Virus record (IMG/VR): IMGVR_UViG_3300015371_000021
Span: 8,190-72,189 of that record
Direction: 5' to 3' (one strand)
Source: a virus
DNA: 64,000 bases
The number at the start of each line of letters is the position of its first letter. Within the stretch, counting starts at the first letter, position 1. Below the pieces are notes generated by a model. It saw nothing but the letters and a program-made list of their open reading frames with translations, was not told where the DNA came from and searched no databases. The translations under genes and the position numbers were made by a program. Shown one piece after another: positions 3,189 through 42,668 of the stretch.

Positions 3189-3199
3189 TTACGGAATGC

Positions 3200-14345: not shown

Positions 14346-14362
14346 GCTCGTTGCTCATGCTC

Positions 14363-14605
14363 CTATTTTATGGGGGGAGGCGGCGCGGCGTTTTTGGCTT
14401 GCAGCTCAGCAAGCTGGCGCTGATCAGACGCAACCTGTGCACGCAGGCGGCTGATCAGGCTGAGTAGCTCGGCGCCGGTGTTGTTGCAGGCGGTGATTTC
14501 GTCCTGCGGAGTCGCGCCGCCACTTTGTGCTGGCTGGGCCTGGACAGCGAAGGGGAGTAGTGCTGTCAAGGCAACGATTACTGTCAGCGAAGCGAGTTTT
14601 GCCAC
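14363..14605 (-). CDS. Small exported coiled-coil protein
   Basis: LTVIVALTALLPFAVQA-Q signal peptide; start uncertain. Confidence 0.55.
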   Translation of the reverse strand: MAKLASLTVIVALTALLPFAVQAQPAQSGGATPQDEITACNNTGAELLSLISRLRAQVASDQRQLAELQAKNAAPPPPIK

Positions 14606-16518
14606 GGAATACCTCTGGTTGTGTTCAGTCCGAAAATGAGCATAGGACGGCCTGGCGTTGCAACCCTTGGTGTAAACAGCAGCTGCTGCCACCAGGACCA
14701 TTGGCCGGATTTGACGCTGTTGTCGGCGTTCAGCGTGCCGTTCGGGTTGGAGCCCGGGCGGTTGCCCCAGACGAACCAGTTGGTCGACATCGGCTGATTA
14801 CGGCCGGGGAAGGCTGGCCCACCCGAGGCGACGCCGTTGGCGTAGGAGACGAAGGTGGCCATAAAGTTCGAGTCGTTCGGCAGGTTGCCGTTCGAGCCAT
14901 CGCAGGAGCAGCCAACCTCAGAGATGAACACCGGCGCGGTGCCGGCGATCTCCAGATAACCGAAGAAGGTGTTCCAGGCGGAGATGGCTGACGCGCCGTT
15001 GTCTGGGGTGACGCCCCACACGTTGCTGGGATAGAGGTCGACCGAATAGGCCACCTTGTTTGCTGGCGGTCCGTTGGTGACCCCGCCAACCGGAGACTGC
15101 GCGACCCCGGTGAGGTCCATCAGCCCCGCGCCACTATTCAGCGGCTGGCCGTTGAGCAGGGTGGAGGTGCGGTTAACCGGCCCCGGCACGATCATGATGA
15201 TGTTCGGGTTGACCGCGAAAACCAGGTTGCCGAGTTCCTGTGCAATACACATCCAGTCGGTATCGCCTGAGCCACAGTTCCAGCAAATGCCGGGATTGAC
15301 CCCGCCGCCTGGCTTGGCTTGGCCGGTAAATGAGCCGGTCACCAGCGGCCGGTGGTGGATTTGGTAGGCAATCACAGTTGGTTCGATAGTGTACCGCTGC
15401 ATTAGGGCGACGGTGTTGTTTTCCCACTGTACCAGCGTAACGTTGGACCCATTGCCGCAGCCGTCGTCGTTGCCGCTGGAGCCGCCGCTGTCATAGGGCA
15501 GGCCGTTAGCTTGCACCGACCAACACGGGCTGGCGGGCGAAGCAGGCAGCTCATTACCCTGATGTGAGAGGATGACCTTGAGGCCTGCGGCCTTGGCGTT
15601 CGCGACGCAGGCGTCGATCTGAGCGAAGGTATTGCAGCCGGTTGCCGGTAGCGTGCCGCCCGAGGATGGTCCGTTGGCCGGCGGCGCGGCGACAGGACCA
15701 CTGTAGGTCTGGGTATTGGGGTCGAAAATGTGCCAGGTGCTGTCGCGAGCGTCGGAGATGTAAACTGTGGTCTGGTTGTAGTAGGCCATTTGGAGAGCGT
15801 TGTGACCGATGTCGCTGAAGTTGCCGAGGCTGACTTCCGCGCCACCAGCCGGGGTCCAAAACGCGTTCAGCTCGGTATCCAGTCGGTAACTGTCCCCGGT
15901 GACCGTGGTGAAGCTCTGACCACCGTTGATAAAGATTGTCGCGATGCCAGGAGTCGAGCCGCCGCTTGGCGGACCAGTGGCAGGTGGGGCGGCGACAGGA
16001 CCGCCGACGCTAGGGCCGACTGGGTTGAAGATATGCCACGTGCTGTCGCGGATATCTTGGATGTAGACGGTCGTGTTGTTGTAGTACGCCATCGCGAAGG
16101 AGTTGAAACCGATATCGCTGATTGAGCCGATCGATTGCTCGCTGCCGCCAGAGGGCGTCCAGAACGCGTTGCCTTCGGTGTCCAGGCGATAGGAATTGCC
16201 CTGCACGTCGTTGAATGACTGGCCGGGGCCGATAAAGGTGGTGGGGATGCCAGGGCCGCCGGTGCCGGCGTTGAGCGCCATGTCGCGCCAAGGAATGACG
16301 ACGCAGTTGAACTGCCCGGTGCTGCGGATTGCCGCCATAGTGCCGTCGTTCGGCGAGCCCAAGAACTGGGTGCATGCCAGCCGCTGCTGATTGCCGGCGC
16401 TATCGATAAACTGGTTGCCGTTGGTCGACAGGAACCCGCTGGCGAGCGGCGAGCCGGTGATCTGCGCCCACGCGGGCTGCGCCACCAGCAGCAGTAGGAA
16501 GGCGAGGAACCGGATCAT
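14584..16518 (-). CDS. Secreted GH5 (cellulase-like) fold protein with duplicated insert and degenerate active site
   Basis: Signal peptide (AWA-Q); FLSTNGNQFIDSAG, AKAAGLKVILSH and APVFISEVG are GH5 landmarks; the NEP position reads HRP. Confidence 0.8.
   Translation of the reverse strand: MIRFLAFLLLLVAQPAWAQITGSPLASGFLSTNGNQFIDSAGNQQRLACTQFLGSPNDGTMAAIRSTGQFNCVVIPWRDMALNAGTGGPGIPTTFIGPGQSFNDVQGNSYRLDTEGNAFWTPSGGSEQSIGSISDIGFNSFAMAYYNNTTVYIQDIRDSTWHIFNPVGPSVGGPVAAPPATGPPSGGSTPGIATIFINGGQSFTTVTGDSYRLDTELNAFWTPAGGAEVSLGNFSDIGHNALQMAYYNQTTVYISDARDSTWHIFDPNTQTYSGPVAAPPANGPSSGGTLPATGCNTFAQIDACVANAKAAGLKVILSHQGNELPASPASPCWSVQANGLPYDSGGSSGNDDGCGNGSNVTLVQWENNTVALMQRYTIEPTVIAYQIHHRPLVTGSFTGQAKPGGGVNPGICWNCGSGDTDWMCIAQELGNLVFAVNPNIIMIVPGPVNRTSTLLNGQPLNSGAGLMDLTGVAQSPVGGVTNGPPANKVAYSVDLYPSNVWGVTPDNGASAISAWNTFFGYLEIAGTAPVFISEVGCSCDGSNGNLPNDSNFMATFVSYANGVASGGPAFPGRNQPMSTNWFVWGNRPGSNPNGTLNADNSVKSGQWSWWQQLLFTPRVATPGRPMLIFGLNTTRGIPWQNSLR
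15650..16255 (-). repeat. Tandem duplication of a ~101-aa module inside the GH5 barrel
   Basis: PGI..FI..GQSF..V.G.SYRLDTE.NAFWTP.GG.E...SDIG.N...MAYYN.TTVYI.D.RDSTWHIF.P occurs twice. Confidence 0.9.
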
Positions 16519-18300
16519 TCACACCGGCCGCCGGTAGTTTACTTGAATCGCGGTCGATGCTGGGGTGCCGGTGACGCCAGAAATCACCATCGTCACGTGC
16601 TGGCCGCTGTTGACGGTATTGGCCGCGCTGCAAGTGGACGTCGTGCGGCTTGCGGCTGAGACGACGATGGCGTTGCAGCCGGTTACCGGCGTACCGTTGA
16701 TCTGAATCGACACGGTAAAGGTGCCACCCGTTGTGTAATAGGTGATGGTGTCGATCGTGCCGGCGCCCCAGGGCCATGTGTCGATGACCGGGATCGTGTC
16801 ATTGCTGACAGCAACCGTCGCGCCCCACCAGGCGGTGAGGGTGCTGGTCGTGTTGCCGATGGTCAGCACAGCAGCGCCTGACAAAGCGAGCGGCGCGGTC
16901 GCGGTCAGCGTGCCGCCCGAGGCGCCGGCCAGGCAGGTCGGGCAGGTAAAGTTGCCGGTGCCGTTATTGTAGACCAGCGGTGCGGTGGCGCTGAATCCGG
17001 TGAGTGACGCGTATGGCCCTTGGGTAAAGCCATTGAACCGGCCGAACAGCCCCTGCGTGGTGCACCAGATCATGCCGTTGGTGGGAGATGTCGGCGCGGT
17101 GCCTTGCGGGCAGATCAGGTTGGCGCCAACGCCAGTCGAGGCCGCTGTGGTTAATGTGCCGGAGAAGGTGGCAGCGGCGATCGTGGCGGTGCCGCTGATG
17201 ACTGGATTGGTCAGTGTTGCTGTGGGAATGGTCAATGCTGTTGGCAGCGTGGTGGCGAACGCTGGCAGAGAGGCGCCATTGCTGACCAGCACGGCGTTGG
17301 GGAGTTGCCCCAGGCACGTTACCGACGTGCCGGACGCCGCGTAGTAAGCCAGCGCTGGCGCACTGCCGCAGTTGCCGACTGTGCCGCCGCCGCCTGACCC
17401 GCCGCCGGGAGGTGCGCCGCCGTCGATCGCCGTGCCGTTTGCCGAGGTGACGATGGCGTTGCCAGGAACGAAGGTACCGGTTGCGGTGAGCAGGCGCGGG
17501 CCGTTGCCTTGACCGTTGACGGTGCCGCCGAGCGCCACAACTTGGCCGGCGACGTTGATCTGCAGGTTGGACGGATTGGACAACTGCACCCAGGTGCCGG
17601 CGTTGTTGCGATAGCTGAAGCATCCAGTACCGGCGCCGGCACCTTCCGAGCCGTTGCGGCAATCGCTGGTCCAGACCCACAGGCTGGCGGCGCCCGAGCC
17701 GGGCAGCGCACCGATCGTGGTGGACAAGAATGACACCGGCCCGCCGAACGACGTGGTGGCGCCGTTATTGGCGATCTGGAAGGTCGGGCCTGTGCTGGTG
17801 ATCGAGGGCGCGGTGATTGCGCCGGTGACGCCAAGGGTTGAGCTTAGCGTGGTGGCGCCCGAGACGCCGAGCGTGCCGGTGATCGTGGTGTTGCCGGACG
17901 CTAGAGTCCCGACCAGCGTGGTGTTGCCGGTGACGCGGAGCGAGGACAGCGTGGTGAGGCCGGCGGGGATGTTCACCGGCGAGCTGAATGTGGTGACACC
18001 GGTGACGGAGAGGCTGCCGCCGATGATGGTATTGCCGGAGGCCGTGATGGTTGAGGCGACGACTGGGAAGCCCGAGCCGACCAGCGTGCCGAGGGTGAAC
18101 TTGACCGACTGGTTCGATCGCGTCGGGCCGACCGCCTGCTGGCCGAGCACAATGTCGTTGATCTGCGGATTGACCCCTTCCGCCTGGCAGGCGGTGGAAT
18201 TCGGCACCGTGGTGAGGCAGGCGGGCTGCGAGCGGGCGCTGGCGATCGACGCCAGGATCAGGGCTAGGGTGATGAAGAGGGCAGAGAGGTAGCGTCGCAT
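16519..18300 (-). CDS. Fibre-like G/T-rich protein with signal peptide
   Basis: MRRYLSALFITLALILASIASA leader; L.VTG.TT repeats and APTSPTNGMIW motif as in tail fibres; many paired Cys. Confidence 0.75.
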   Translation of the reverse strand: MRRYLSALFITLALILASIASARSQPACLTTVPNSTACQAEGVNPQINDIVLGQQAVGPTRSNQSVKFTLGTLVGSGFPVVASTITASGNTIIGGSLSVTGVTTFSSPVNIPAGLTTLSSLRVTGNTTLVGTLASGNTTITGTLGVSGATTLSSTLGVTGAITAPSITSTGPTFQIANNGATTSFGGPVSFLSTTIGALPGSGAASLWVWTSDCRNGSEGAGAGTGCFSYRNNAGTWVQLSNPSNLQINVAGQVVALGGTVNGQGNGPRLLTATGTFVPGNAIVTSANGTAIDGGAPPGGGSGGGGTVGNCGSAPALAYYAASGTSVTCLGQLPNAVLVSNGASLPAFATTLPTALTIPTATLTNPVISGTATIAAATFSGTLTTAASTGVGANLICPQGTAPTSPTNGMIWCTTQGLFGRFNGFTQGPYASLTGFSATAPLVYNNGTGNFTCPTCLAGASGGTLTATAPLALSGAAVLTIGNTTSTLTAWWGATVAVSNDTIPVIDTWPWGAGTIDTITYYTTGGTFTVSIQINGTPVTGCNAIVVSAASRTTSTCSAANTVNSGQHVTMVISGVTGTPASTAIQVNYRRPV

Positions 18301-18325
18301 ATCGCGCAGTCCATCCAGGATGTGC

Positions 18326-18345
18326 GCTTACGGGACGCCCGAAGC
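18326..18345 (-). promoter_or_regulatory. Leader hairpin with GGG-CGU-CCC core
   Basis: Plus strand GCTT-A-CGGG-ACG-CCCG-AAGC, ~25 nt upstream of ATG 18300. Confidence 0.5.
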
Positions 18346-18463
18346 CAGCCACCCTACCGCGCGCGGGTGTCACGGTTCAAGTTGCAGCGTCGTTAGGTTT
18401 GGGAGTATGCTGTGCGCCTGGACCTACCCCTTGCGCCGGCCGCGGTAATGGTCGGCGCTTCTT

Positions 18464-21400
18464 TTATGGCGCATGCTCCTGGGCGCGACGGAAACGCTCC
18501 TTTACTTCTGGCGTGCCGGTCTGTTCGATCATCCGCCTAGTCCGCCCTGATATCGTCGGGTTTTGTGTTTGGCGGATGAAGCGCCCGATCTCTCGCGGCT
18601 CCATGCCGAGACGGCGCAGCTCCACCCAGGCGCCCTCGGTGTCGCCGTTGATGATTTGCTTTCTGATGTCGGGCATCGCCTTTTGCAGCGCGTATTCGTT
18701 GCGCTGTCTCTGGGCAAGGGCCTCGCCCGCGGCCCGCCCGCCCGGCACACCCTGGCTGACCGTGAAGGCCCCGGTCAGCGGGCCCAGCAGCTTCATCGCT
18801 GAGACGCCGGGATCAGCCTGCGTCTTCTGCCCTAGCGCATACTGCTGGAATAGTTCCTTGCCGCCCTGGAGCATCATCGTCGGCCCCCAGTTGCTGGCCA
18901 GGTGCTGGACGATGGCGCCAGCGGTATCGAGCCAATCGCCCATGGTTTCTGGGTGCGGCGGTAACTGTGCCCGGCCCAGCGTGTCATAGCCCATGCCTAG
19001 TTCAAGGAACGGACGCACAGGGACCGGCCCGGGCGAGAGCTTGTTCATTAGCATCGGGCCGAAGTGGATTGGCCAATTGATGAACTCCTTGCCGACCTTG
19101 CCGGGCGGCAAGCTCAGGTAAATGCCGCGCCCGTTGCTGTCGACGCCGGCATAGACATGGTCCTGCTTGCCGGGCTCGTTCCAATGCTGCGGCAGCACAC
19201 CGAAGATGCTGAGCGGGTTATGCGTGACAGCGTCATGGAGTGAGAAGGCTGCCTGGTCATACCAGTCGTTGAAGACGTTTTGTGCCGTTTCTGGTAGGTT
19301 GCTTGCATACGACTTCATCTTGGTGACGAGCGGGTCGTCAGACGAACCTCCCACCGGATTGTCGCGCAGCACCTGCAGCCCGGCCTGCACAAGCGCGTTG
19401 GCGATGTAGAAGAAGCCGATGTCCAGCGCGACGGCAGCTCGCGCCTCACGCTTCATATGCTGCTTTGCCGACTTGGCTACATCAGGCCCAGCCATCTCCT
19501 CGATCCGGGCGCGGATATGCGACGGCGCGCCGTTAAACATATCCTTCAGCACGCCAGCGTTGCCCAGCGTGAACGAGCGCGAGAACAGCAGCAGGTTCGC
19601 CGCCATGTTGGCGCCCTTGCTGAGGTGCTCAGGCGGTAGCGCGCCGGCGTAGCGATTGGCAAAGTGCGCCCCTATCGTCGCGGCGACATCGGGAGCGAAA
19701 CCCTTTTTCTGAGCCTCTTTCGTCATATGGTTGTAGATGCCGACCTGGAGATCGAAAACCTTGTCCCACAGCAGCCGCTGGTGCACTTGTTCCCAGGCGT
19801 GCGGGATAGCCATAACCGCACGGCGAAACGCACCCTCAGACACCGGCTCGCGCGCCTCATCAGCAATCGAGGCAAGATCGACCCAACCGCTACGGGCACG
19901 GCCAAGTGGGGCGAGCCCGTGTTGAATTGCCCGATCCATGTAATCGAGGTCCTGCCGTAGTACCCGGCCATCGCGCAGCGCTTGGAGCGTCAGCACGCGC
20001 ATCGGCATGACCGCCAAAGCGCGCCCCATCTCGACGCCTAGATGGATGTAGGGGGAGGCCATAATGACCGACATTAGGCCACTCTTGCCGCTCTGCAGCG
20101 TCCTGTACCACTGCGGCGACTTCTCGGTGATGACCGCCTTTATGGGTCCTTCAAATCCAACTGGGATGCGGATATCGCGGTAGCCTGTGCCGGTCCATTC
20201 GCGAAATGCCGGATGGTTCGGCATGGTGGTGTAGTCGGCGGGGTTGAGCAGGCCGGGAATATCCCCCCGCACCACTGTCTGCACGCCGGTCTCTTTTCCG
20301 ACCCTATCGATCTTGTCGATCAGATCACGCGCAATGATTGCTCGCTGGATCGAGGATAGGACGTTCGGCAACGCGCGAATGTCACGCACCATCTGCGCCT
20401 CAGGCCCGAGCTTGGCCTGTGCTGCCGCCTCAGTTTCCTCCGGTGTCAGATGCTCACGTCGCATCGGCCCGGCGGTGCTGGACAGATTGCCGCGTTGGTC
20501 AATGGTGATCGACGCGCCCGTCCCGCCCTGCGGCCGGGTGAAGCCTTGCTCTTCGGACCACATCAACATGCGGCGCGGCATGTAATAGGGCAGACCTTGC
20601 GCCTCGGGCGCCACCATCCCGCGCTCTTGCATCTGATGCCAAAGGTTTTGCGAGATGGCGTCCAGCGCATCGATCATCTGGCGTTGTGGCTCGCTAAGGC
20701 CGGTGAGCCCGGTGTGGCCAGCATCAAACTCGGCGCGCGCCGCATCGCGCATGTCCGGCGGCATCTGCCGCACCTGCTGCTCGAACACAGACTGAGCGTC
20801 CATGGCCCGCCCCATGGCATCACGCTCTTGGCGACCGAACTTGCTTTTGATGCCGCGGTCGATCTCATTGAAGTGGTAGTTGTTCTGCCGCATCAGATTG
20901 GCGACGTCGGCGAGCGATGCTTGAGCGAATGTGTCGCCCTTGCCCATTGGAAAGAGCATGTCGTCGCGGAACGATTTGGCGATTGCGGCCGAGTTGTCTC
21001 GGAGACCCCGCAGGGGCTTTGCCAGCGGGCCGAATGCGCGCTTCCACGCCTCGGGATCGAACAGCGCGCCGGGGAATGAGTAGAGCTGCGCGCCGGGTGA
21101 CTGGTCCCTGCGAGCCTCTACCTCCGCCATAAACTGGTCGCGCGTCTTACCCTCAGTCTCGATGCCGTGTTGCGACGCGAGGCGGTCAATTTCGGAATTG
21201 GCGAATTTGGCGCGCTCATAATTGGCGACCGACGCGTCGTCGAGCATCGAGTAGCGCGGCCGATACTTCAGGTCATCGTTCAGCGCGTCGCGAAGATCAT
21301 TGATCGATGGGCGCTGATCGCCGAGATCGGGGAAGTAGCCAGCCTCCCAGGCGCGCAGCGCGGCTTCATCCATCGGCAAGCCGGTTTTGCTGATCAGGCC

Positions 21401-27778: not shown

Positions 27779-27794
27779 CATGCCAGTGGGATAG

Positions 27795-30760: not shown

Positions 30761-30763
30761 TCA

Positions 30764-31060
30764 TTACCCCTCGTAGGATTTGCGCGTCCGCTCCCTCTCC
30801 AGGCCGCGCTCGATCATCTCAAGCAGCTTTTCTACCGGACGGCAGATATCCTTATCGACGCACGGGCCGCAGATATTTTTGCCGCATGCGCGACAGAACC
30901 CACCGATATCGGCGGCACGCTCACGGGCGTTGACGAAAACCACACCGCTGCAATGCGCGCAGGTAAAGGTGTCGTGCTCGACATCAATCAGACGCCCATG
31001 GCGATCACGTGCGACAATCGGATCATCGCAAATGATCTGCCCATAGCCAGCGCCTCTCAC
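30764..31060 (-). CDS. Zn-finger protein
   Basis: CAHC, CRAC, CGPC and further Cys. Confidence 0.75.
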   Translation of the reverse strand: MRGAGYGQIICDDPIVARDRHGRLIDVEHDTFTCAHCSGVVFVNARERAADIGGFCRACGKNICGPCVDKDICRPVEKLLEMIERGLERERTRKSYEG

Positions 31061-31530: not shown

Positions 31531-31543
31531 GTATCGTCCTTTC

Positions 31544-33223: not shown

Positions 33224-33235
33224 GGTGCATCTCCA

Positions 33236-33634
33236 TCAGGCGTTGCCGGCGGTGATCGTGTAGGTGGTGACAGTGACCGCCTGACCCGCGGTGATGGACA
33301 GGTTGTCGAGCGTCAGGTTGCCGCCGCCACCAGTTATCGTGACGTTGCCCTGCTGGTGACAGGTACCGCCGCCGGAATACATGCGCCACGATGCTGCGCT
33401 TCCACTTCCTGACGCCGCCACAGTCCATGAACCAGCGATCGTGGTGACGCCGCTGGCGCTGGTCATAAACGTCGCGGGCAGTGTGATCGTTGCCAACAGG
33501 CCGGACGGATCGGCCGCCGCGCAATTCACCGGCTCTGTGCCAGAGAATATTTTGACCGTGCCGGAACTACCCACCACAGTCTGGATGGCTGAGGTCTGCG
33601 CGTCCCGCAGGGCAGTCGAATACTGGAGCGCCAC
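33236..33634 (-). CDS. Conserved phage tail-associated protein
   Basis: KIFSGTEP..C...LLATITL...GSAASWR...QG...GGGNLTLDN.SI.AGQ.VTV. Confidence 0.75.
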   Translation of the reverse strand: MALQYSTALRDAQTSAIQTVVGSSGTVKIFSGTEPVNCAAADPSGLLATITLPATFMTSASGVTTIAGSWTVAASGSGSAASWRMYSGGGTCHQQGNVTITGGGGNLTLDNLSITAGQAVTVTTYTITAGNA

Positions 33635-33645
33635 AGGTCAGGTCC

Positions 33646-34254
33646 TCACGGTGTGCGATTAAAGGCGGTTACGCTCGCGCCGGTCTCGTACTGCGCTGCG
33701 CCGAGCCGGAGGGTGCAGTCCACTGCCGTTCCGTTATCAATGAAGGCGACGCACTGCATATCGACAAAAACGCCACCCACCGGCGTGAGCACGTTGGTGT
33801 ACGATGTCCGCACGAGCGGCCCACTAGCAGGCGTGATGCCAAAGCCCGGGGTAGATGAAGCAAGGTAGGCATTGCCGCTATCCTGCCAGTCGATCTGCAT
33901 GCCCCATTCAAGACTGCCGATCGAGCCACTTACCAACGCATAATAAAATGAGTAGGAATACTGAGCGCCCGCGGTGGACGGGGTATCCGAGTCATCCGAT
34001 ATCATGAATACCTGGAGATAGCCGTCGGCGTCGGCTGTGCCGTTGAACCGTATGTCACAGGTGGGGAGGCCGTCACGGTCGGTACGGCGGTCAACCAGCG
34101 TGACGGTGATGCCGCCAGGGGTGGCTTGGACAAGCCAAGGAAGCACACTTGGTGCCGACCCGCCTGAGCCAATGACACCGACCACTGCGCTGGCAACCTC
34201 AGTTGTCGCAATCAGATTGGTGCGCAGCTGATAGCGTCCAGCGCGAGCGAGCAT
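33646..34254 (-). CDS. Tail-associated carbohydrate-binding-like protein
   Basis: RTNLI...GAAQYETGASVT framing motif; TGATG-coupled start. Confidence 0.6.
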   Translation of the reverse strand: MLARAGRYQLRTNLIATTEVASAVVGVIGSGGSAPSVLPWLVQATPGGITVTLVDRRTDRDGLPTCDIRFNGTADADGYLQVFMISDDSDTPSTAGAQYSYSFYYALVSGSIGSLEWGMQIDWQDSGNAYLASSTPGFGITPASGPLVRTSYTNVLTPVGGVFVDMQCVAFIDNGTAVDCTLRLGAAQYETGASVTAFNRTP

Positions 34255-34694
34255 CAGGCAAGGTCCCCGAACACGTACCAGGTGTTCGTCGAATACTGCC
34301 AAGCCCAAATGATCGAACCAGCGGCGCGCGCGGTGGTCGTCCCTGTGCCCGACACGAGCGTCACACCGCTACCCGCCACGAAGCCTGGACGCCCAGCCGC
34401 ACCCGAGAGCCAGACCAGCCCTAGCACGTTGCCGACGGCATAGGCGTTCGAGCTGTTGGGCGGGATGGTGAAGTTGGCGGCCGATGCCGCGTTGAACGGC
34501 ACGATACAGCCGCGATCATCGAGGTTCGCGGCGGCCGGTGTGTAGTTGCCCGTCTTCACACCGTTCGGCGAGACACTGATGGAGAACGCGCTTTCCGAAG
34601 CGTTGCGGATTGCTCCCTCATTGATCGCGTTGGTGTTGTTGTCCTGCTGCTCCGTGGAGAGCGCCGAGGGCGCTTTGACGGTTCCGATCGCCAT
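34254..34694 (-). CDS. Tail-fibre-associated protein
   Basis: TIPPNSSNAYAVG...AGSGVTL...TNTWYVFGDL domain. Confidence 0.75.
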   Translation of the reverse strand: MAIGTVKAPSALSTEQQDNNTNAINEGAIRNASESAFSISVSPNGVKTGNYTPAAANLDDRGCIVPFNAASAANFTIPPNSSNAYAVGNVLGLVWLSGAAGRPGFVAGSGVTLVSGTGTTTARAAGSIIWAWQYSTNTWYVFGDLA

Positions 34695-34696
34695 AC

Positions 34697-35191
34697 CTAT
34701 GCCCTCAGTGCCATCAGGGTGATGCAGCCGTCCGCCAACGTGGGGTCCTCCACGGCGGGGGCGACGCGCTGCAGCACGTCACCTACAATCAGCGACGCGC
34801 CAGGACCAGCCAGGACAGCGGACGTGTTGGTTGCCGGCGTGATAGTCACCGTGCCGATCAGCGTGGTCACCCCGCCGCGGATGCGGTTAAAGGTGAACAC
34901 CGCGTTCGCTGTCGGCGGGGTCACGTCATACACCTGAGACCCGGCCAGCACAGCAGGGATCGAGATGCTGGACGCCATTACGATGTGCTGCATCTCGCCG
35001 GCTGCCGGCACGCCGGTAAATGGAAACGCGATGGGCACCTGCTGCAGCGAGGCCGGCAGCTGTGCATAGCCGATGCTGCCGGTCGCGACGCTGACTCCGC
35101 GCAGCACCAACGCCAATTCGGCCAGCAGCTGGTTGCCGTTGATCTGCTGAGCAACGATGCTGGACACGTCGGGTGGAAGAAACCCGGACAC
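34697..35191 (-). CDS. Tail-associated protein
   Basis: IGTVTI...LIVGDVL...APAVEDPTLAD domain. Confidence 0.65.
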   Translation of the reverse strand: MSGFLPPDVSSIVAQQINGNQLLAELALVLRGVSVATGSIGYAQLPASLQQVPIAFPFTGVPAAGEMQHIVMASSISIPAVLAGSQVYDVTPPTANAVFTFNRIRGGVTTLIGTVTITPATNTSAVLAGPGASLIVGDVLQRVAPAVEDPTLADGCITLMALRA

Positions 35192-37248
35192 TAATAACCC
35201 CTGCCATCTGCCGCGACACGATAGCGAAACTTTCCCAGCCGGTTGAAGGAGCCGATGTCGTTGCCCTCCACCAAGATCGCCATCTGACGACCGCGCCCGG
35301 CGAACGGCGGGATGTACGCCGCGTGCGGCGACCAGGCGAACGGCCCGACGACGCTGTAATCGTCCGACGGTAGGTTGCGAAACAGCAGCGAGATGCGAAT
35401 TTGCGGCTCGCCCAAGGTGATGAAGTCCGGAATGAACTGATCGACGAACTCCATGTCCTCGCCCTCGCCGAGGAAGAAGTCCGCGGTCTGCCAGGACCAG
35501 GCTATGCCTGTGCCATTGTCATCGCGCCCAATCTCGTGCTGCAGCATCAGTCCCGACGGATCGGTGCCAAGCGGGATGCCTGGCGCGGAGCCAGCCTGCA
35601 GCGTATGGCCGACCCAGGCGGTGCGCTGCAGCTGCGGCGAGATCGAGTAATCCCAGGCGTTTTCCACCACGTTGAACTTGACTGAGCCGCGGGTGACGCT
35701 GCCCGCAACGTAGAGGTCTGACGCAGGGTCGATCGGAAAGAACAGCTCGAATTCGTTGTAGGTCGCGTTGACGCCCATGTGAAACAGGCCGGGTTGGTTG
35801 AGGTCCCAGTTGTTGTAGAGGATGTCCCAGACCGAGCACGGCACCGGCTGCGGCGCGCCGCCAGCGATGCTCATCATGTAGAAGCCATGCGGCGATAGCC
35901 AGAACACGACCTGTCCGAGCACCGCAAAGCAGCGCATGCCGAGCAGCCCGCAACGCTGCGCGATCGGCTGAAATCCAAACACGAACGGCAGGCCCATATA
36001 GGTCATCGACCAGGCGCCAAGATCAGTCCAGAGGATGGCACCGAGGCCGGTGGGAAGGCCGCCAACCAGGCGGTTGCCTTGCGGGATGGTAAACGAGCCG
36101 GCCTGATTGAACTCGGTCGGCACCCAGTCGGTGTAGTCGCCGTTGGTCGACCAGCGCACCAGCATCGGCTGCTGCTGGCCAAACACTTCGGCGCCCAGCG
36201 CCACCACCATCCGGGCCTGCGACATGACGAAGACCGCGGTATTCGCGGTCGGCGCGTCGGGAGAGACAATGGCGGCCGGCACGATGGCCGGTGGGGTCCA
36301 CTGATAAATTCCACCGCCGCTCGGGCTGGCGATTAGCACCGCGCCCCAGTTGGTCAGCGACCACTGCCGCATCGGTTGGATCGCCTGCTCGGACGCGAGC
36401 GACCCACCATAGTCTCCGGCGCCGTAGTCGCCGCCGCCATAACCAGAGAGCGCGGTGTCCTGCGCAAAGCCGGTCTGCAGCAGGTAGCGAATTTGCGCCG
36501 CACCGCCGTTGAGCGGCACGGTGGCGCCGCCAGAGGCGGTGTCAGTAACGCTGATGGTAAAGTGCGAACTGTCCGGCACAGTCTCCACGGCATAGAGCCC
36601 TTCGACTGTCACTCCGGAGAACGTGGTCGGGACCACCGCATTATAGGGCGAGCCGACGGCAAGACCGTGTTGCGGGAATTCCACCGTGATCACCGCGCTG
36701 CCGCCGGTCGACGTGTAGGTCGGCACCACCCCGCCCGACGTGGTAAACGTCGCGGGTGTCGCTGCCTCGACGGTGTATTCCGTGCCGCCGCCGGCACCCG
36801 ATACCTGGTAGATACCAAACAGGATCAGCCCGTCGATCGAGACCGGTGTGGCGATGCTGATCCAGTCGCCAATCTGCGGCGCGTGGTCCGGGTCATCGAT
36901 GGTGACCGCGGTGGACCCACCCTGCGTCGAGAAGGCCGGCAGCGGATTGGTGGTCGCCTGTAAGGGCGTAATGTCATCGATCACGCCGCCGGTGAACACT
37001 TCCAGCCGCTGCTCAGTACCGGCGACGATGTAGGAGTTGCCCTTGAGATCATCGAAGGCATGCAGCCCGCTACAGGTGCCGATCAGACGTTCGGCGGTCA
37101 GTTGCTGCCACCCGCCACGCTTTTCCGGCAGACCCGAACGGAACCGGATTAGCCGAGATGTATTCAGCTTGGTCTGGTTAGTCGTCGGGGTGTTCTGGAC
37201 GTCGACCCCTGGCTCCAGGGTGAGGTCACGGTAAGCCACGGGTGTCAC
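35191..37248 (-). CDS. Tail tubular/nozzle protein (P22 gp10/T7 gp12-like) with inserted beta domains
   Basis: IRFRSGLPEKRGGW N-terminus; VRWS..DYTDW; beta-propeller-like; position in the operon. Confidence 0.8.
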   Translation of the reverse strand: MTPVAYRDLTLEPGVDVQNTPTTNQTKLNTSRLIRFRSGLPEKRGGWQQLTAERLIGTCSGLHAFDDLKGNSYIVAGTEQRLEVFTGGVIDDITPLQATTNPLPAFSTQGGSTAVTIDDPDHAPQIGDWISIATPVSIDGLILFGIYQVSGAGGGTEYTVEAATPATFTTSGGVVPTYTSTGGSAVITVEFPQHGLAVGSPYNAVVPTTFSGVTVEGLYAVETVPDSSHFTISVTDTASGGATVPLNGGAAQIRYLLQTGFAQDTALSGYGGGDYGAGDYGGSLASEQAIQPMRQWSLTNWGAVLIASPSGGGIYQWTPPAIVPAAIVSPDAPTANTAVFVMSQARMVVALGAEVFGQQQPMLVRWSTNGDYTDWVPTEFNQAGSFTIPQGNRLVGGLPTGLGAILWTDLGAWSMTYMGLPFVFGFQPIAQRCGLLGMRCFAVLGQVVFWLSPHGFYMMSIAGGAPQPVPCSVWDILYNNWDLNQPGLFHMGVNATYNEFELFFPIDPASDLYVAGSVTRGSVKFNVVENAWDYSISPQLQRTAWVGHTLQAGSAPGIPLGTDPSGLMLQHEIGRDDNGTGIAWSWQTADFFLGEGEDMEFVDQFIPDFITLGEPQIRISLLFRNLPSDDYSVVGPFAWSPHAAYIPPFAGRGRQMAILVEGNDIGSFNRLGKFRYRVAADGRGY

Positions 37249-39013
37249 CTGCCGTCGCGGCCTTCAGTTCATCCAGCTCACGCATGACGTGTTGCAGTGC
37301 AGCAGTTAGGTAGGCGACGTCGTGCGCATAGTCGCGCGTCAGGCGATAGCCGCCCGCTACAGTGCCGTCGCTCTCGGCGTATTCGGGGCGCGCGTCCGGC
37401 ACCGGCACCAGCGCGGCGCCGCGTCCGTTGATCCATTCCTCTTGGGCGATAAAGCCCGAGGAGTCCTTGCCGCCCTTCCAGGTAAAGGTGACCGGCCTGG
37501 CACGGTCGATCCACTCGCGCGCTCGCGCGGGGGAGATGGTTTCGATGGCTTCCTTGGCGCGGGCATCAGACGTGGTGAAGAAACCCTGGCCGACATAGGA
37601 GTTCGATGCGTTGCAACCGATCGCGACCGGACCCCATGCGCCTGGCGTGGTCGCAACGGATGGTTGGATGACGTAGCAGCCGTTGCCACTGATCGCGGCT
37701 GCGCCGCCGAGAGAGACCAGGCCACTAACATTGAGGGTAGTGCTGACCGATACACTCCCGGTCACGGCGAGGGTCGTCAGGAAGGCCCCGGACGCATTGA
37801 GTATGTGCGCGCCGCTGCCCGCATTGATCGTCGGCGCGGTGACAGTTGGAGCGGTGAGCAAATTCCCCGAGACCGTGCCGGACGCAGTGAGCGATGGGGC
37901 GGTGATTGCCGGGGCGGTGAGGTCCGTCGCGGTGAGCGTAATGCCGCCCGAGGTGTTGACGGTGAACCCGGCGCCCCCGCCGCCATGGTACTGTATATAC
38001 TGACCGGAGGCGAAGTTGAGCTGCTGATTACCCGACGCGTTCGGCTCGGCGTAGAACTGCGCACCGGTGCCGAAATTCGTTCGACCGTTGACGGTCAGGT
38101 TGCCGGTAATGGTCTGGCTGCCGTTGACCGTGCCACCCGAATTGGTGGCGGCTGAGCCGGTGATGTTGATCGCGTAAGTGCCGCCGTCGTTCAACACCGG
38201 CTGCGCGCCGGAGACTGTCAGGCCGCCATTACACGCCGTCGTACCGCCCACGATAAGCGCGCCGCCGATCGATGTTCCGGCGTGGGTACCGTCGATCGAC
38301 ACCGCGCCGGTGCTCATGTTCCAAGAGAACGGCCGGAGACTGTCCCACGACCCGAACGGTTGGCCAGCCGCCGTCTGCATGAAGAACGTGGAGGAGCCGT
38401 CGTTATGGATGAACATGGCGCGCCCGCCACCGATGGCGCGGAATTGAGCGCCGCCTTGGTCGGTGCCCTGTGCGGTGATGCCACCTGACGCGGAGAACAT
38501 GCCGCCACCCGAGGCGATAGCCCCGCCGGCGGAGATGTTCGCGGTGACGTTTGCGCTGCCGCCGACGGTCAGATCGCCGGTCGTGGTTTGTCCGCCGACG
38601 CCGACGTTCAGCGACGAGACATTGGTGAAGCCGTCGGTCCAGTAGAGATACCAGAGATTGTCGTTGGGCACGGTCAGCGTTGTCCCGCCGCCAGCAGTCA
38701 GGGTCAGTATCTGCCCACCGGTGGTCGCGTTCCGCACGTAGCCGATTTTCTGCACGTTCGGCATGTGAATATTGCAGGCGCTCGCCAACGTGCCGATGAA
38801 AGTCTTCATCCGATAGCGCCGCTCGTCGGGCACACCATTGCCAACGGTGAGCGTGTAATCGAGCCGGTTGGAGATATCGATTGTCACGAGCCCGTCGAGC
38901 GACTGGTCCTCCAAGGTCGCGTTGGTGCTGTTCGGCGCGCCCCAGGAATTGCGAATCGACGGATCGAACGGCTGCAGCACCGCAAAGCCGTTCGACTGGG
39001 TATACGTAGTCAT
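37226..39013 (-). CDS. Tail fibre with C-terminal intramolecular chaperone (peptidase S74)
   Basis: TTSDARAKEAI...PVTFTW...GFIAQE...DY..VAYLTAALQ. Confidence 0.88.
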   Translation of the reverse strand: MTTYTQSNGFAVLQPFDPSIRNSWGAPNSTNATLEDQSLDGLVTIDISNRLDYTLTVGNGVPDERRYRMKTFIGTLASACNIHMPNVQKIGYVRNATTGGQILTLTAGGGTTLTVPNDNLWYLYWTDGFTNVSSLNVGVGGQTTTGDLTVGGSANVTANISAGGAIASGGGMFSASGGITAQGTDQGGAQFRAIGGGRAMFIHNDGSSTFFMQTAAGQPFGSWDSLRPFSWNMSTGAVSIDGTHAGTSIGGALIVGGTTACNGGLTVSGAQPVLNDGGTYAINITGSAATNSGGTVNGSQTITGNLTVNGRTNFGTGAQFYAEPNASGNQQLNFASGQYIQYHGGGGAGFTVNTSGGITLTATDLTAPAITAPSLTASGTVSGNLLTAPTVTAPTINAGSGAHILNASGAFLTTLAVTGSVSVSTTLNVSGLVSLGGAAAISGNGCYVIQPSVATTPGAWGPVAIGCNASNSYVGQGFFTTSDARAKEAIETISPARAREWIDRARPVTFTWKGGKDSSGFIAQEEWINGRGAALVPVPDARPEYAESDGTVAGGYRLTRDYAHDVAYLTAALQHVMRELDELKAATAGDTRGLP

Positions 39014-39723
39014 GCGGCTCTCCTATCCGCGTCGGACATGCCGCGGCGGCGCATCTCCTCACCCTTGGCCGCGGCTAGGTGTTTCGTGAAGAGCGCTTCC
39101 CAGCTGAGCGCCTGGCCGGTTTCGTCGGCCGCAGCGCCGTAGTTACGATTGAGCGCGCCCGCAAGAAATACGCAGATCGCCGCCTGCAGCAGCTCGGGAT
39201 ACTGACGCGACAGATAGGTTGAGGGATTGGTTACGCTCATCGGTGAGGCGGCAAACAACCCACCGAGTCTGACCGTGTAAGCATTGTCCGGCGTTGGTGC
39301 GATCACCACGCTGGTCGCGTCACGCAGCGCCCAATAGCGCCCGCCCTGCCAGGTCAGCGATGGCATCATGGTGGTGAATTCGTTGGGCCAGACGCGATCG
39401 ATGAAATCGATGCTGACCCGATCGAAGGGAATCAGCCCGCCATTGACCACCAGGCGAAGCACTTCCGGCGTAACCAGCGGCAGCGGGGTCGCGGACAGAT
39501 CGATGACACGCGATCCCGTGGTGGTCGACGCAGAACTGTCCTCGACATACGACGCGATGAAAGGAATTTCATGGTAGATGCGCGTCTCGGCGGTACTTAC
39601 GGCAATCGGGAACTGGGCGAGGAACAGCGTGTCGTAGACCGGTGTGGTTGGCACAGGCGACGGCAAACGCCCCATTGCAATGGCACAGGATTGCATCAGC
39701 GAGGACCAGGTTTGCTCAGCCAT
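39010..39723 (-). CDS. Head-tail adaptor/tail tubular A-like protein
   Basis: AETRIY...IAPTPDNAYTV...TYLS..YPELL. Confidence 0.8.
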   Translation of the reverse strand: MAEQTWSSLMQSCAIAMGRLPSPVPTTPVYDTLFLAQFPIAVSTAETRIYHEIPFIASYVEDSSASTTTGSRVIDLSATPLPLVTPEVLRLVVNGGLIPFDRVSIDFIDRVWPNEFTTMMPSLTWQGGRYWALRDATSVVIAPTPDNAYTVRLGGLFAASPMSVTNPSTYLSRQYPELLQAAICVFLAGALNRNYGAAADETGQALSWEALFTKHLAAAKGEEMRRRGMSDADRRAA

Positions 39724-39735
39724 CGTGGATGTCCA

Positions 39736-39933
39736 TCAACGCGCCCGCCAGCCGATTGTCGTCGGACGCACCTGACTGCCGATGTTGAACCCCTGAGTGA
39801 ATGCGTCGCGCTTAAACCCGCCAGCCGCACCTCCGCCGGCACCGATCGCGCCCTCTGACCGCCGCGCGCGCCAGGGCAGCAGAAACGCCAACAAAAGTGC
39901 GCCTAGCGAACGGCGACTAAGTAACGCTCTCAT
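39736..39933 (-). CDS. Small protein with twin-arginine-like leader
   Basis: MRALLSRRSLGALLLAFLLP; ATGA-coupled to the upstream gene. Confidence 0.55.
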   Translation of the reverse strand: MRALLSRRSLGALLLAFLLPWRARRSEGAIGAGGGAAGGFKRDAFTQGFNIGSQVRPTTIGWRAR

Positions 39934-42668
39934 CCGGTGCGTCCGTTGATAAAGGCGGTGATGGTGCCAGTCGTCTTGGTAAAGCAGGTCGTTGCACTGG
40001 AAACCACCGCAGTGATGCCGGTGGAGAACACCTGCGGTGGCCCCGGGGAATAGTCGATCTGTGCGTAGCTCGACGCCGGTAGCGGCACGCACGCGAGTGG
40101 CGTGACTGCGCCATCTGCTGGTGACGTGGTGGAATTCAGCACCAGCAGGAACCCAGCAGTCGATGTCAGGTTGGTCGCGTAGACGCTGTACAGATTGCCA
40201 GCGCTGGCCTTCAGCACGTGATTATTCTCAGCCGCACTGGAAACCACAGAAGTAATACCGGCGGCGGAGGCGGACGTCGGCGCGACGGTGGTCTGCACCG
40301 GCGTCATGCCGGACGAGCCCTGCACCGTCCACGGACCAGACGCCTGAGTGACGGCGCCGATCGTGTTCGAGCCCGGCGGCAACTGGGTATTCACGGTGAC
40401 CAGCGTGTTGCCGCCGCTGTCACACTGCACCGGCGAAGAGCGGGTGGAGGTAATAGCGGTCGGCGCGGTGTTGAACTGACAGCCGGTGAGAATGGCGTTG
40501 GCCGGGGACACCGCGTTCTGCCCGGCAAAGTCCAGCACCGCCCCACCATTGCCGAGCAGGTTCACCGTCGCCTTCAGATTAGCCGCAGTCGCCTGCGCCA
40601 CGGTGGCATTCAGGTTGGCCGCGGTGGATTGGCTGACTACGAGCGCCGTGCCGTTGGCACCGGTGTTGGCGAGCGACACCTGCAGGGGAGTGGTGGACGT
40701 GCCGACCTCGGTGCCGGAGGCGTCACGCAGGTTGGAAAACAGCGCCCGCTGCGCCGTCACCTGAAACGCACCCTGCTGCCCGGTAGTGAGTGCGTTGGAG
40801 GTGGCGGTGGTCTGGAAAAAGCCGCCCACCAGGGTCTGCGGCGAGGTGCTGGCGGTGAAGGTACTCTTGTCCGCCGCTGTCGTGGTCGTGCAGCCGCTGT
40901 CGCAGACGATGTGCAGATTGGTGCCGGTGGCCTGGGACACCGTCGCATTCAAGTTCGACGCCGTCGACTGGCTTACCTGGATCGGCGTCATTGAGGCGAT
41001 GCCCTGGACTGTCATCACGCCGGTGTCTGACGTCCCGGCAGTGCCTGCTCCCGTCGCCTGCGTCTTTAGGTTCGACGCGGTGGCCTGGCTGACATTGGCA
41101 TTGAGGTTCGCCGCCGTGCTCTGCACCACAGTCGCGTTCAAGTTGGCCGCTGTGCTCTGCGCCGCCGTCACCAGCACCGCCGTGCCATTGGCTGCCGTGT
41201 TAGCCAGTGAGACCTGTACCGGCGTGGTCGAAGTGCCGATTTCCGTGCCCGACGCGTTGCGCAGGTTGGTGAACAGCGCGCGATTCGCGGTGACCTGAAA
41301 CGCGCCCATCTGGCCGGTGGTCAGCGCGTTGTTTGTCGCGGTGGTCTGAAACACGCCACCGATTGGCGTCTGCGAGGTGGTGCTGAATGTAAAGGTCGAC
41401 GCGTCGGCCGGTGCGGTCGAGGACGAGCAACCGCTGTCGCAGGAAACATGCAGGCTGGCGCCAGACGACTGTGCCACGGTGACCGCCGTCCCCGAGGCGA
41501 TGCCCTGGATGGTCTGCACGCCGGTGTCAGGCGTGCCTGCAGTACCCGCGCCGGTGACCTTAGCGTTCAGGTTCGCTGCGGTACTCTGCACCACGGTCGC
41601 GTTAAGATTCCCGGCCGTCGCCTGCGACACCTGCACCGGCGTCATTGACGCGATGCCTTGGACCGTCAGCACGCCCGCGTTGGCCGTGCCGGCGGTGCCG
41701 GCACCGATAACGGTCGCGTTCAGATTGGCCGCCGCGGCCTGACTGACGGTGACCGGTGTGGCGTTGGAAGCAGTGTTGGCAAGCGAGACCTGCAGCGGCA
41801 CAGCAGCGACCCCGGCCTCAGCCCCCGTTGCGTTGCGCAGGTTGACATGCAGTGCGCGGTTAATCGTCGCTTGCACCGCGCCCATCTGACCCGAGGTCAA
41901 TGGATTGGACGTCGCCGTCGTCTGATATACCGCGCCGATCGGCGTCTGCGATGACGAGCCGAAGGTAAATGCCCCCTGATCGGCCGGCGCTCCGGTAGCC
42001 GAGCAGCCACTATCGCAGACCATGTGCAAATTGGACCCGGTGCCTTGGACAGCGGTGACCGTGCCGGATACCGTCGCCAGCAAATTGCCGGCGCTGGCAT
42101 TGTTGACGATCAGCGGGGTCATCCCCGAGATGCCTTGCACCGTCTGCACCCCGGTGTCAGCGGTGCCTGCGGTGCCGGCGCCAGTCGCCTGCGTCTTCAA
42201 ATTCGCCGCGGTGGATTGGATTGCCGTCACAGACCCGCCGGCTTGCACCGAGACAGAGACCGGGGTCATGCCCGCGATACCCTGGACGGTCATCACGCCA
42301 GCATTCGCCGTACCCGCTGCCCCAGCACCGACCACGGTCGCGTTCAGATTTGCCGCCGTCGCGTTGTTGACGATCACCGGCGTCATCGACGCGATGCCCT
42401 GAATCGTCAGCACGCCAGCGTCAGCAGTTCCTGCGGTACCCTTACCGGTCGCGAGCACAGAGAGTCCAAGCGTCGCAGAAACCGGCGCGCAGGTGTTCGG
42501 ATCAGTCGCGTCGCAGGTAATACCGCGGTTAGAGAACTGGCCGCCGATATTGGCCTTCACGTTCATCTGCTGATTGGCGCCGTCGGCGTCTTTGATCTTC
42601 AGTCCGTCGGCGTGCGCCGGGACCGATACCAAGAGCAGGAGAAGAGCAACGATCCATCGCGCCATCAC
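39930..42668 (-). CDS. Signal-peptide-bearing repetitive fibre/adhesin-like protein
   Basis: MMARWIVALLLLLVSVPAHA-D leader; GAGTAGT.D.GV.TVQGIASMTP and QATAANLNATV repeats; three CDSGC blocks. Confidence 0.8.
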   Translation of the reverse strand: MMARWIVALLLLLVSVPAHADGLKIKDADGANQQMNVKANIGGQFSNRGITCDATDPNTCAPVSATLGLSVLATGKGTAGTADAGVLTIQGIASMTPVIVNNATAANLNATVVGAGAAGTANAGVMTVQGIAGMTPVSVSVQAGGSVTAIQSTAANLKTQATGAGTAGTADTGVQTVQGISGMTPLIVNNASAGNLLATVSGTVTAVQGTGSNLHMVCDSGCSATGAPADQGAFTFGSSSQTPIGAVYQTTATSNPLTSGQMGAVQATINRALHVNLRNATGAEAGVAAVPLQVSLANTASNATPVTVSQAAAANLNATVIGAGTAGTANAGVLTVQGIASMTPVQVSQATAGNLNATVVQSTAANLNAKVTGAGTAGTPDTGVQTIQGIASGTAVTVAQSSGASLHVSCDSGCSSSTAPADASTFTFSTTSQTPIGGVFQTTATNNALTTGQMGAFQVTANRALFTNLRNASGTEIGTSTTPVQVSLANTAANGTAVLVTAAQSTAANLNATVVQSTAANLNANVSQATASNLKTQATGAGTAGTSDTGVMTVQGIASMTPIQVSQSTASNLNATVSQATGTNLHIVCDSGCTTTTAADKSTFTASTSPQTLVGGFFQTTATSNALTTGQQGAFQVTAQRALFSNLRDASGTEVGTSTTPLQVSLANTGANGTALVVSQSTAANLNATVAQATAANLKATVNLLGNGGAVLDFAGQNAVSPANAILTGCQFNTAPTAITSTRSSPVQCDSGGNTLVTVNTQLPPGSNTIGAVTQASGPWTVQGSSGMTPVQTTVAPTSASAAGITSVVSSAAENNHVLKASAGNLYSVYATNLTSTAGFLLVLNSTTSPADGAVTPLACVPLPASSYAQIDYSPGPPQVFSTGITAVVSSATTCFTKTTGTITAFINGRTG

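Follow-up and report, generated by a model that had tools for sequence, protein, structure and literature searches.

Late proteins with putative export leaders and paired cysteines, fibre-like and glycanase-like, in an uncultivated podophage

Particles of tailed phages are held to be built wholly in the reducing cytoplasm of the host. Exported late phage proteins are already known and include endolysins that carry signal peptides or SAR (signal-arrest-release) sequences, the antiholin RI, spanins and XepA; on virion or fibre proteins of tailed phages that bear signal peptides, our searches of open-access literature brought up nothing relevant. Here, we analyse a window of 64,000 nucleotides (bases 8190–72189 of the 72,189-bp IMG/VR virus record IMGVR_UViG_3300015371_000021, which is complete and has direct terminal repeats) from an uncultivated podophage and describe four proteins of its late, minus strand that begin with putative Sec-type signal peptides: the fibre-like gp912 (39930–42665) and gp593 (16519–18300), the glycanase-like gp644 (14584–16518) and the small gp80 (14363–14605). 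About 6.5 kb of the 72 kb appears to encode large, exported proteins with paired cysteines. Positions are those of the window throughout.

By analogy, the closest precedent for the gp593/gp644 pair is XepA of PBSX from Bacillus subtilis. The XepA gene lies directly upstream of the holin genes, and its late product builds up until lysis, is exported past the membrane and does not occur in particles (PMC6834076). The likeness lies in its β-sandwich domain, which matches the C-terminal domains of gp593 (Z 9.0; root-mean-square deviation, rmsd, 2.8 over 99 aligned residues) and gp912 (Z 6.7, under the noise bar of 8), in the location of gp593 and gp644 upstream of a holin-like gene, and in their presumed export. 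However, XepA belongs to a Gram-positive host, is a pentameric dumbbell of 279 amino acids (aa) without sequence similarity to the proteins described here, and is devoid of a fibre region, of cysteine pairs and of a glycanase partner. Exported lysis proteins are known from fOg44 and P1 (PMC6834076), and the antiholin RI of T4 is mentioned as having a cleavable leader (PMC8385771). Sec-exported and SAR endolysins, RI and spanins are late, use Sec and act in the periplasm, and gp80 as well as its neighbours gp148 and gp72 look generally like them, whereas gp912, gp593 and gp644 are fibre- or glycanase-like proteins of 590–910 aa without a peptidoglycan hydrolase domain. A bacterial counterpart is WceF of Pantoea stewartii, a trimeric, phage-fibre-like protein that binds or cuts glycans, carries an export signal and is presumed to have exopolysaccharide as its target, within the periplasm or outside it (PMC7949094). 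WceF differs in being encoded by a chromosomal gene, unrelated to a phage late operon, in its signal, which is of the twin-arginine translocation (Tat) rather than the Sec type, and in its β-helix fold. Free phage depolymerases and other late-operon cargo are likewise glycan-degrading or extracellular proteins that are made late and released by lysis. To our knowledge, such proteins normally lack signal peptides; here, by contrast, the leader and the conserved pairs of cysteines suggest that folding in the periplasm is obligatory. Finally, the S74 tail fibre of the phage itself (37226–39013) resembles gp593 in its fibre-like repeats (residues 76–173 of gp593), but has no leader and 4 cysteines, whereas gp593 and gp912 lack the S74 domain and have a leader and 12 cysteines each.

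Leaders were called with our own simple rule for n-, h- and c-regions, a crude heuristic on which all leader counts given below rest, and genes in the compared loci were called by the length of open reading frames (ORFs) and the GC content of third codon positions (GC3). Each of the four leaders consists of a positively charged n-region, 10–17 hydrophobic residues (the h-regions of gp593 and gp80 span 16–18) and a small-x-small site. With a slash for the predicted cleavage, they read MARW..VPAHA/DG in gp912, ..ASIASA/RS in gp593 (or ARS/QP when aligned with homologs), ..QPAWA/Q in gp644 and ..AVQA/Q in gp80. The ATG of gp912 at position 42665 shares a base with the upstream stop codon (TGATG) and is for this reason likelier than the alternative GTG at 42668; the ATG of gp644 follows immediately after the stop codon of gp593, and gp80 starts with a GTG at 14605 behind AGAGG. 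Across the whole 72-kb genome, the rule flagged 12 of 441 six-frame ORFs of at least 60 aa, and the three highest scores (7.0, 6.2 and 5.7) are those of the three large proteins, so that leaders occur more often than by chance. Among 34 curated late-strand proteins, six were flagged, namely the four leader proteins (5.7–7.0), the membrane anchor of gp148 (4.5) and a small ORF, ORF65 (3.6).

The leaders are also conserved. At E ≤ 1e-3, the scored candidates included 560 homologs of gp912, and 93 of the 119 listed (the protein of the window left out) have a leader; among the 26 misses, several are fragments that lack the starting methionine, and some leaders went unflagged for lack of net charge. 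Leaders were found in 8/9 close homologs of gp593, the ninth being leader-like but devoid of a basic residue, and in 10/15 homologs of gp644. Only 4 of 22 distant gp593 matches have one; these matches share the fibre repeat only and are ordinary S74-type fibres. In the gp912, gp593 and gp644 families, the leader is thus kept in position rather than in sequence. We take these leaders to be real Sec signal peptides; actual export and cleavage of gp912, gp593, gp644 and gp80 would follow.

The large leader proteins are rich in cysteine pairs. In gp912, 12 cysteines form six close pairs (51/59, 217/221, 409/413, 588/592, 729/748 and 859/894), gp593 has 12 in six pairs and gp644 has 11, compared to 4 in the S74 fibre, 1 in the giant internal protein of 1403 aa and 0 in that of 1511 aa. 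The earlier note on this DNA, made from its letters and ORFs, had noted leaders on these four proteins and richness in cysteine pairs for the large ones, unlike the S74 fibre at 37226, and had proposed conservation of the leaders as a check; all three points hold.

More telling is how the cysteines vary with the leaders. In the gp912 family, 89 of the 119 homologs have a strongly hydrophobic N-terminal segment, and the number of cysteines beyond that segment is even and non-zero in 86 of the 89 and zero in none (binomial p ~4e-22 against one half, although the sequences are related and the counts not independent events). The six complete members without a leader have 0, 0, 1, 3, 2 and 1 cysteines and lack the CxxGC motifs. 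A profile of the ~125-aa repeat that carries the CDSGC motif retrieved 2,145 representative clusters at E ≤ 1e-3, 944 of them at E ≤ 1e-10, from 1.84 billion proteins; 81 of 100 further representatives have leaders, with an even number of cysteines in 76, an odd number in 5 and none without cysteines. A pair within the first 80 mature residues, after the conserved first strand, is present in 70/94 leader-bearing homologs, that of the window included. Together with the conservation of the leaders and the leaderless homolog described next, this covariation across ~170 leader-bearing homologs strongly supports export and oxidative folding of the leader proteins, as far as sequences can tell; disulfides are expected in gp912, gp593 and gp644.

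The strongest sequence evidence that the leader of gp912 works is a syntenic homolog that lacks it. Locus L034 belongs to the same lineage, as judged from the identity of its major capsid protein (46%), tail hub (37%), adaptor (32%), zinc-ribbon protein (48%) and the C-terminal part of its phrog_12985 protein (40%), and has a matching gene order, in which two small genes separate the zinc-ribbon gene from that of a 539-aa homolog of gp912. This homolog has 2 cysteines and no leader; the 13 codons ahead of its ATG include two in-frame stops, the closer of which is 2 codons upstream. Its residues 2–102 align with residues 19–123 of gp912, so that the aligned part of gp912 begins at its predicted cleavage site, and the cysteines of the CDATDPNTC loop and the CDSGC motifs of gp912 correspond to positions occupied by other residues. 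Given this alignment and the syntenic location, leader and disulfide pairs look like add-ons to one and the same protein, which are present or absent jointly even where related phages are compared at one and the same gene position. It follows that the task of gp912 could be performed from either compartment, that is, after lysis. The contrast allows one to ask whether the periplasm serves to harden extracellular proteins and whether proteins so treated can still join the virion. A search of G002, the record that holds L034, gave neither gp593 nor gp644; as this record is only 63% complete, absence is not concluded.

Behind its leader, gp912 (911 aa from the ATG) comprises a conserved N-terminal strand with a cysteine loop, three repeats of ~125 aa, each with a CDSGC motif, and a C-terminal jelly-roll knob (residues ~800–911). 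Full-length AlphaFold models of gp912 and gp593 are poor (mean predicted local distance difference test, pLDDT, 53.6 and 46.1), and the C-terminal domains alone are usable; in gp912, the knob reaches a pLDDT of about 90 and the rest is modelled poorly. The best fold match of the knob, the C-terminus of Pgp3 (Z 7.0; rmsd 3.0, 91 residues aligned), is below the noise bar of 8 of the search tool, and so it and the other matches (besides XepA, several head domains of TNF, BAFF/APRIL and C1q) are a lead only. When residues 720–911 were modelled in three copies, the interaction prediction score from aligned errors (ipSAE) was 0.61, compared to 0.00 for the best of three controls, with a pLDDT of at least 80; the mark used, which 21/30 solved pairs and 0/23 single chains reached, was calibrated on two copies only. 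The trimer runs share at least 86% of their contacts. We read gp912 as a predicted trimeric, knobbed fibre. It has no sequence match in Pfam, PHROGs, NCBIfam or PDB and no PF13884 domain at E ≤ 0.01; the profile of its repeat gave no PDB match (the best E over the PDB searches was 0.11), and a tblastn search of 50,697 phage records returned one weak, partial match over 15% of the query, annotated as ‘glycoprotein repeat domain’. In the ESM Atlas, the repeat retrieved nothing at or above 0.9 and the knob retrieved unnamed viral clusters only.

The gene for gp912 lies between the head and tail genes. The 402-aa phrog_12985 protein gp402 (43275–44483, minus strand) and gp209 (42665–43294, minus strand), a zinc-ribbon (CxxC..CxxC) protein with proline-rich stretches and twice-repeated LTDD.GN.ITDD.G.PI motifs, are encoded upstream, the stop codon of gp209 overlapping the gp912 start. 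The places of gp912 and gp209 are kept in L001 (gp912 identity of 87%), L002 (a 68% relative) and L034; within this lineage, gp209 and gp402 always lie upstream of the 911-aa gene, and L005 has a similar pair. The GC3 of gp912 equals that of its neighbours. An inserted domain is common to gp402 and the 685-aa tail protein, and a PDB sequence search gave no match for gp402 or gp209. Leader-bearing relatives of gp912 in nine other viral contigs also sit among structural genes, which include those for a tail sheath (L004 and L022), tail proteins of the families phrog_394/376 (L017) and a tail protein of phrog_3287 (L009), a family that is present in the window as well.

The other three leader proteins have a different setting. 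The virion genes are set apart from an exported or lysis-type block by a GC-rich hairpin (18433–18458) just after the stop codon of the 1511-aa gene and by a gap of 163 nt ahead of gp593; the hairpin, whose T-run is on the plus strand only, may act as a terminator of the minus-strand operon. Beyond it, gp593, gp644, gp80, gp148 (13899–14345, minus strand) and gp72 (13679–13897, minus strand) follow each other with a stop–start contact, a 22-nt overlap and spacers of 17 and 1 nt, and every product has a leader or a membrane helix. The earlier note had placed all leader proteins in the morphogenesis operon; this fits gp912, which is inside the head-to-tail block, but not gp593, gp644 and gp80, which form part of this tight block of membrane or lysis type past the hairpin and gap.

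The first of these, gp593 (593 aa), consists of the leader, an N-terminal C-x9-C loop, fibre-like repeats (residues ~76–173) and a C-terminal jelly roll (residues 479–593), and has six conserved cysteine pairs, of which C214/C227, C453/C456 and C542/C557 are invariant. Its repeats resemble those of cyanophage structural proteins (tblastn against the 50,697 phage records: seven records, fibre repeat only). The C-terminal domain matches chains from the capsid entries of cyanophage Pam1 (Z 10.5) and phage GP4 (Z 9.5), XepA, as given above, and CBM36 and the tail fibre of phage 7-7-1 (both Z 8.9). Searches of Pfam, PHROGs and NCBIfam gave a weak match to phrog_36281 only, with no PF13884 at E ≤ 0.01, and a PDB sequence search gave no match.

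The adjacent gp644 (644 aa) combines its leader with a GH5 (cellulase-family) barrel, which is interrupted by two tandem repeats of ~100 aa (residues ~90–290). The match to PF00150 (E 5e-5, 23.4 bits) is just under the cut-off of 23.5, homologs of gp644 are annotated with this family, and the similarity to endocellulase E1 extends over residues 358–595 (6.5e-11). We take the catalytic residues to be a nucleophile Glu on β-7 and the acid/base Glu of an N-E-P motif on β-4. The nucleophile is kept (FISEVG aligned with WLGEFG of E1), whereas the acid/base Glu is replaced by Arg390 (CGG, 15349–15351; HHRP aligned with HNEP of E1). At this position, eight of nine aligned homologs have Glu and one has Asp; Arg is found in this phage only. 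The ~200-aa C-terminal domain of close homologs is missing as well. To judge by these residues, gp644 is perhaps a protein of the GH5 fold rather than an active GH5 enzyme. A tblastn search of the 50,697 phage records (E ≤ 1e-3) yielded no GH5 relative of gp644, and these records show no DNA similarity to the region 14363–18300.

In the remainder of the block, gp80 (80 aa) has a leader followed by a short, presumably periplasmic coiled-coil and proline-rich part, with a single cysteine 17 residues past the predicted cleavage site; its 86-aa leader-bearing homolog in L023 is free of cysteines. An o-spanin was considered for gp80 and rejected, since the lipobox cysteine at the end of the leader is lacking. 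Next, gp148 has an N-terminal membrane anchor and a coiled coil, by eye an i-spanin-like topology, and a weak match to phrog_1863 as its only family match. The last product, gp72, is small, with hydrophobic helices, and holin-like; it is conserved in L023 (47% identity) beside a homologous fibre/GH5 pair. L023, from a related genome of the same lineage, conserves the block: it encodes a leader-bearing fibre, a leader-bearing GH5 protein that keeps the Glu, the 86-aa leader-bearing coiled-coil protein, the holin-like protein and a lipoprotein. The lysis block is variable within the lineage: the lipoprotein of L023 (143 aa, ..LLAGC; 14227–14658, plus strand) follows the holin-like gene in place of the gp148-type anchor, and a convergent 267-aa ORF (14655–15458, minus strand) resembles, by eye from its motifs, papain-type cysteine proteases. 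Farther afield, pairs of a gp593-like and a GH5 protein, both with leaders, are encoded three genes upstream of the portal gene in L060 and directly before the large terminase gene in L061, and in L062 a leader-bearing GH5 protein adjoins an endolysin. Since L060 and L061 are unrelated contigs, the gp593/gp644 pair appears to be a mobile cassette rather than a fixed part of the tail module, one that tends to sit at lysis-gene sites.

The explanation that we prefer, while giving it about an even chance, is that the leader proteins are exported to the periplasm, fold there oxidatively and act outside the cell after lysis. Late in infection, Sec would carry four or more proteins into the periplasm and their conserved pairs of cysteines would be oxidized there; the proteins would act once the cell is opened. 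The first unit would be the mobile cassette of gp593 and gp644, with gp80, that is, an exported fibre- or lectin-like protein with an exported GH5 glycanase, which would head a five-gene, envelope-targeted block ending in the holin-like gene and serve as a lysis-linked accessory set. Its products would not be built into particles but freed at cell burst, and would bind or cut a glycan of the host envelope or matrix, so aiding release and dispersal or masking receptors on debris; having lost the acid/base residue, gp644 may only bind. The second unit would be gp912, an exported, disulfide-stapled version of a trimeric knobbed fibre, whose counterparts in related phages have no leader, are nearly free of cysteines and occupy the same place between head and tail genes. 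The gp593/gp644 pair is probably free rather than virion-bound; the free state and a glycan target of the leader proteins in general are put forward with more reserve.

Several points weigh against this explanation. For gp912, translational coupling inside the head-to-tail block, a GC3 equal to that of the neighbours, the conserved N-terminal domain and the predicted trimeric knob are what one expects of a virion fibre, and the simplest reading of the leaderless L034 homolog is as a part of the virion. The homologs counted are related to each other and their counts not independent, the leader heuristic is crude and cleavage is a prediction. Without its acid/base Glu, gp644 is doubtful as an enzyme in this phage. 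Lastly, no endolysin was found beside the holin-like gene: no scanned ORF has a muramidase or amidase domain, the sole SLT domain of the genome being that at the N-terminus of the 1511-aa protein, and the block is called a lysis block on the strength of its topology and of one small membrane protein that is conserved.

The foremost alternative, which we consider possible though clearly less probable, is that gp912, and possibly gp593, is a virion fibre matured in the periplasm: it would trimerize and gain its disulfides there and bind to finished particles through its N-terminal domain after holin action or burst, much as decoration proteins come last onto mature capsids. The start–stop coupling of gp912 between head and tail genes, a location kept in L001, L002 and L034, and the homologs among structural genes of nine further contigs speak for it, as do the trimer prediction and the resemblance of the C-terminal domains of gp912 and gp593 to jelly rolls that belong to entries of phage cement proteins, of capsids and of fibre tips. 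The L034 homolog, moreover, aligns from its first residues with the mature N-terminus of gp912, as if docking at the same site. However, the N-terminal module of strand and cysteine loop recurs across different tail types (L004, L022, L017, the window and L009), and therefore misfits one specific docking site, while the gp593/GH5 pair moves to genome positions away from tail genes, and no protein of a tailed-phage particle that is added from the periplasm surfaced in the literature covered. The earlier note had envisaged fibres or adhesins matured in the periplasm and either added to virions at lysis or displayed or secreted by the infected cell. Export and disulfide folding gain support from leader conservation, cysteine covariation and the L034 homolog; nothing shows addition to virions. 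For gp593 and gp644, the contexts next to terminase, portal and endolysin genes favour a free exported module, whereas gp912 fits both outcomes, as a free, trimeric, lectin-like fibre or as one that is loaded onto particles. A bolder form of the same idea, which we likewise regard as tentative, is a widespread family of phage fibres matured in the host periplasm, with Sec leaders and sets of disulfides gained in many lineages and particles loaded only after the holin joins the compartments. If true, tailed phages would have a two-compartment assembly route, and leaderless, cysteine-free orthologs at the same place would represent the ancestral or an alternative route.

It is unlikely that the N-termini are instead uncleaved anchors, which would fix the proteins at the inner membrane, where they would take part in membrane-associated assembly or serve as surface or exclusion proteins of the infected cell. 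The long h-regions of gp593 and gp80 and the true membrane anchors of the neighbouring gp148 and gp72 are in line with such a role, but all four leader proteins and most homologs have a small-x-small site after the h-region and many predicted mature ends have Gln as the first residue behind A-x-A, which is also seen in exported proteins; exclusion functions, besides, are usually early or lysogenic rather than late. Least probable by far is that nothing is exported, the starts being miscalled or the leaders inert and the proteins ordinary cytoplasmic fibres: the searched collection indeed gives gp593 and gp644 lengths of only 508 and 565 aa, less than those of the present ORFs and in both cases from a contig that is short there, yet the 508-aa entry begins with the same leader, leaders are kept across families at 30%–87% identity, start contexts are good (AGAGG before gp80, stop–start coupling for gp912 and gp644) and the covariation of leaders and cysteines would be left without explanation.

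Relative to the systems considered above, what is new is the size and fibre nature of the exported proteins, the tight covariation of leaders and cysteines, the syntenic pair with and without a leader, the export cassette of a fibre and a GH5 protein, and the nameless family of 2,145 representative clusters itself. Family members are present in metagenome-assembled genomes of Acidobacteriota and Rhizobiales; a genome scan with a single protein as query gave six loci with little context, four of them from Acidobacteriota (three so titled and one from Terriglobia) and one from Aestuariivirga. Whether the periplasm hardens such proteins and whether they can then join the virion matters, whatever the answer, for phage annotation, because leader-bearing ‘tail fibres’ are routinely called structural, as well as for predicting host range and for finding stable proteins that bind glycans. 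In soil and freshwater hosts, the pair of fibre and GH5 protein is a candidate for a new accessory in phage lysis and release.

As to the genome as a whole (GC ~62%), its nearest cultivated relatives are phages of Roseobacter, Pelagibacter, Ochrobactrum and Sinorhizobium, with ~25%–35% identity in the terminase and the 685-aa tail protein. The minus-strand late operon encodes the large terminase (57766–59604), the portal (53796–56105), the major capsid protein (46173–47081) and, downstream of gp402, gp209 and gp912, an SU10-type adaptor (39010–39723), the Peptidase_S74 fibre with its PF13884 domain, the 685-aa virion or tail protein (35191–37248), whose counterparts in other phage records are annotated as ‘stabilization protein’, small fibre-like proteins and the two giant internal proteins. 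Among the tail genes, a 98-aa protein (30764–31060, minus strand) has 8 cysteines in CxxC pairs and is zinc-finger-like. A 2-oxoglutarate-Fe(II) oxygenase (PF13640, 1.3e-10; 57123–57668, minus strand) is encoded directly downstream of the large terminase gene, and upstream of the latter lies a 1038-aa ORF (60680–63796, minus strand) with a GC3 of 0.66, lower than that of the structural genes, and no match in Pfam or NCBIfam. Far from the lysis block, a 67-aa ORF (2341–2544, plus strand; GC3 0.87) with a lipoprotein-like leader (..CLALGGC) may encode a small lipoprotein, for exclusion or as part of a spanin. Outside the window, at bases 2001–4438 of G000 (minus strand), a run of ORFs encodes a 68-aa membrane protein and proteins of 182, 375 and 201 aa, the 375-aa one with an N-terminal motif that we presume to be that of pectate-lyase-type tailspikes; an SLT domain was not detected in this run, which may be a second envelope-directed cluster or the site of the missing endolysin.

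A separate question is that of Tat export. ORF65 (39736–39933, minus strand), a small, Gly-rich ORF with a hydrophobic N-terminus, had been given a twin-arginine leader in the earlier note. Tat signals have a motif like S/T-R-R-x-F-L-K before a mildly hydrophobic h-region, and ORF65 does contain SRRSLG and an h-region of 13 residues, followed by RARR, but it lacks a small-x-small site, its homolog in L001 has an ordinary Sec-like leader with one Lys and no RR (MKAL..SALA/A) and the ORF is absent in L002; the twin-arginine assignment is therefore doubtful and unsupported, and we do not accept ORF65 as a Tat substrate. ORF65 is possibly a small exported peptide. In six loci (L004, L006, L009, L011, L015 and L022), the gp912 relatives are followed by one to three more leader-bearing ORFs of 124–892 aa, so that structural modules of these uncultivated phages seem commonly to include clusters of exported proteins; ORF65 may be such a downstream ORF on a smaller scale. 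No convincing Tat substrate was found in the genome for the 69-aa TatA/TatE homolog that the phage encodes (744–953, minus strand; PF02416, 38.4 bits for a cut-off of 21; TIGR01411, 57.5 for 53.9). This homolog is absent from the complete related genome G001, and its only seven tblastn matches among the 50,697 phage records have the appearance of bacterial contigs that were deposited as phage.

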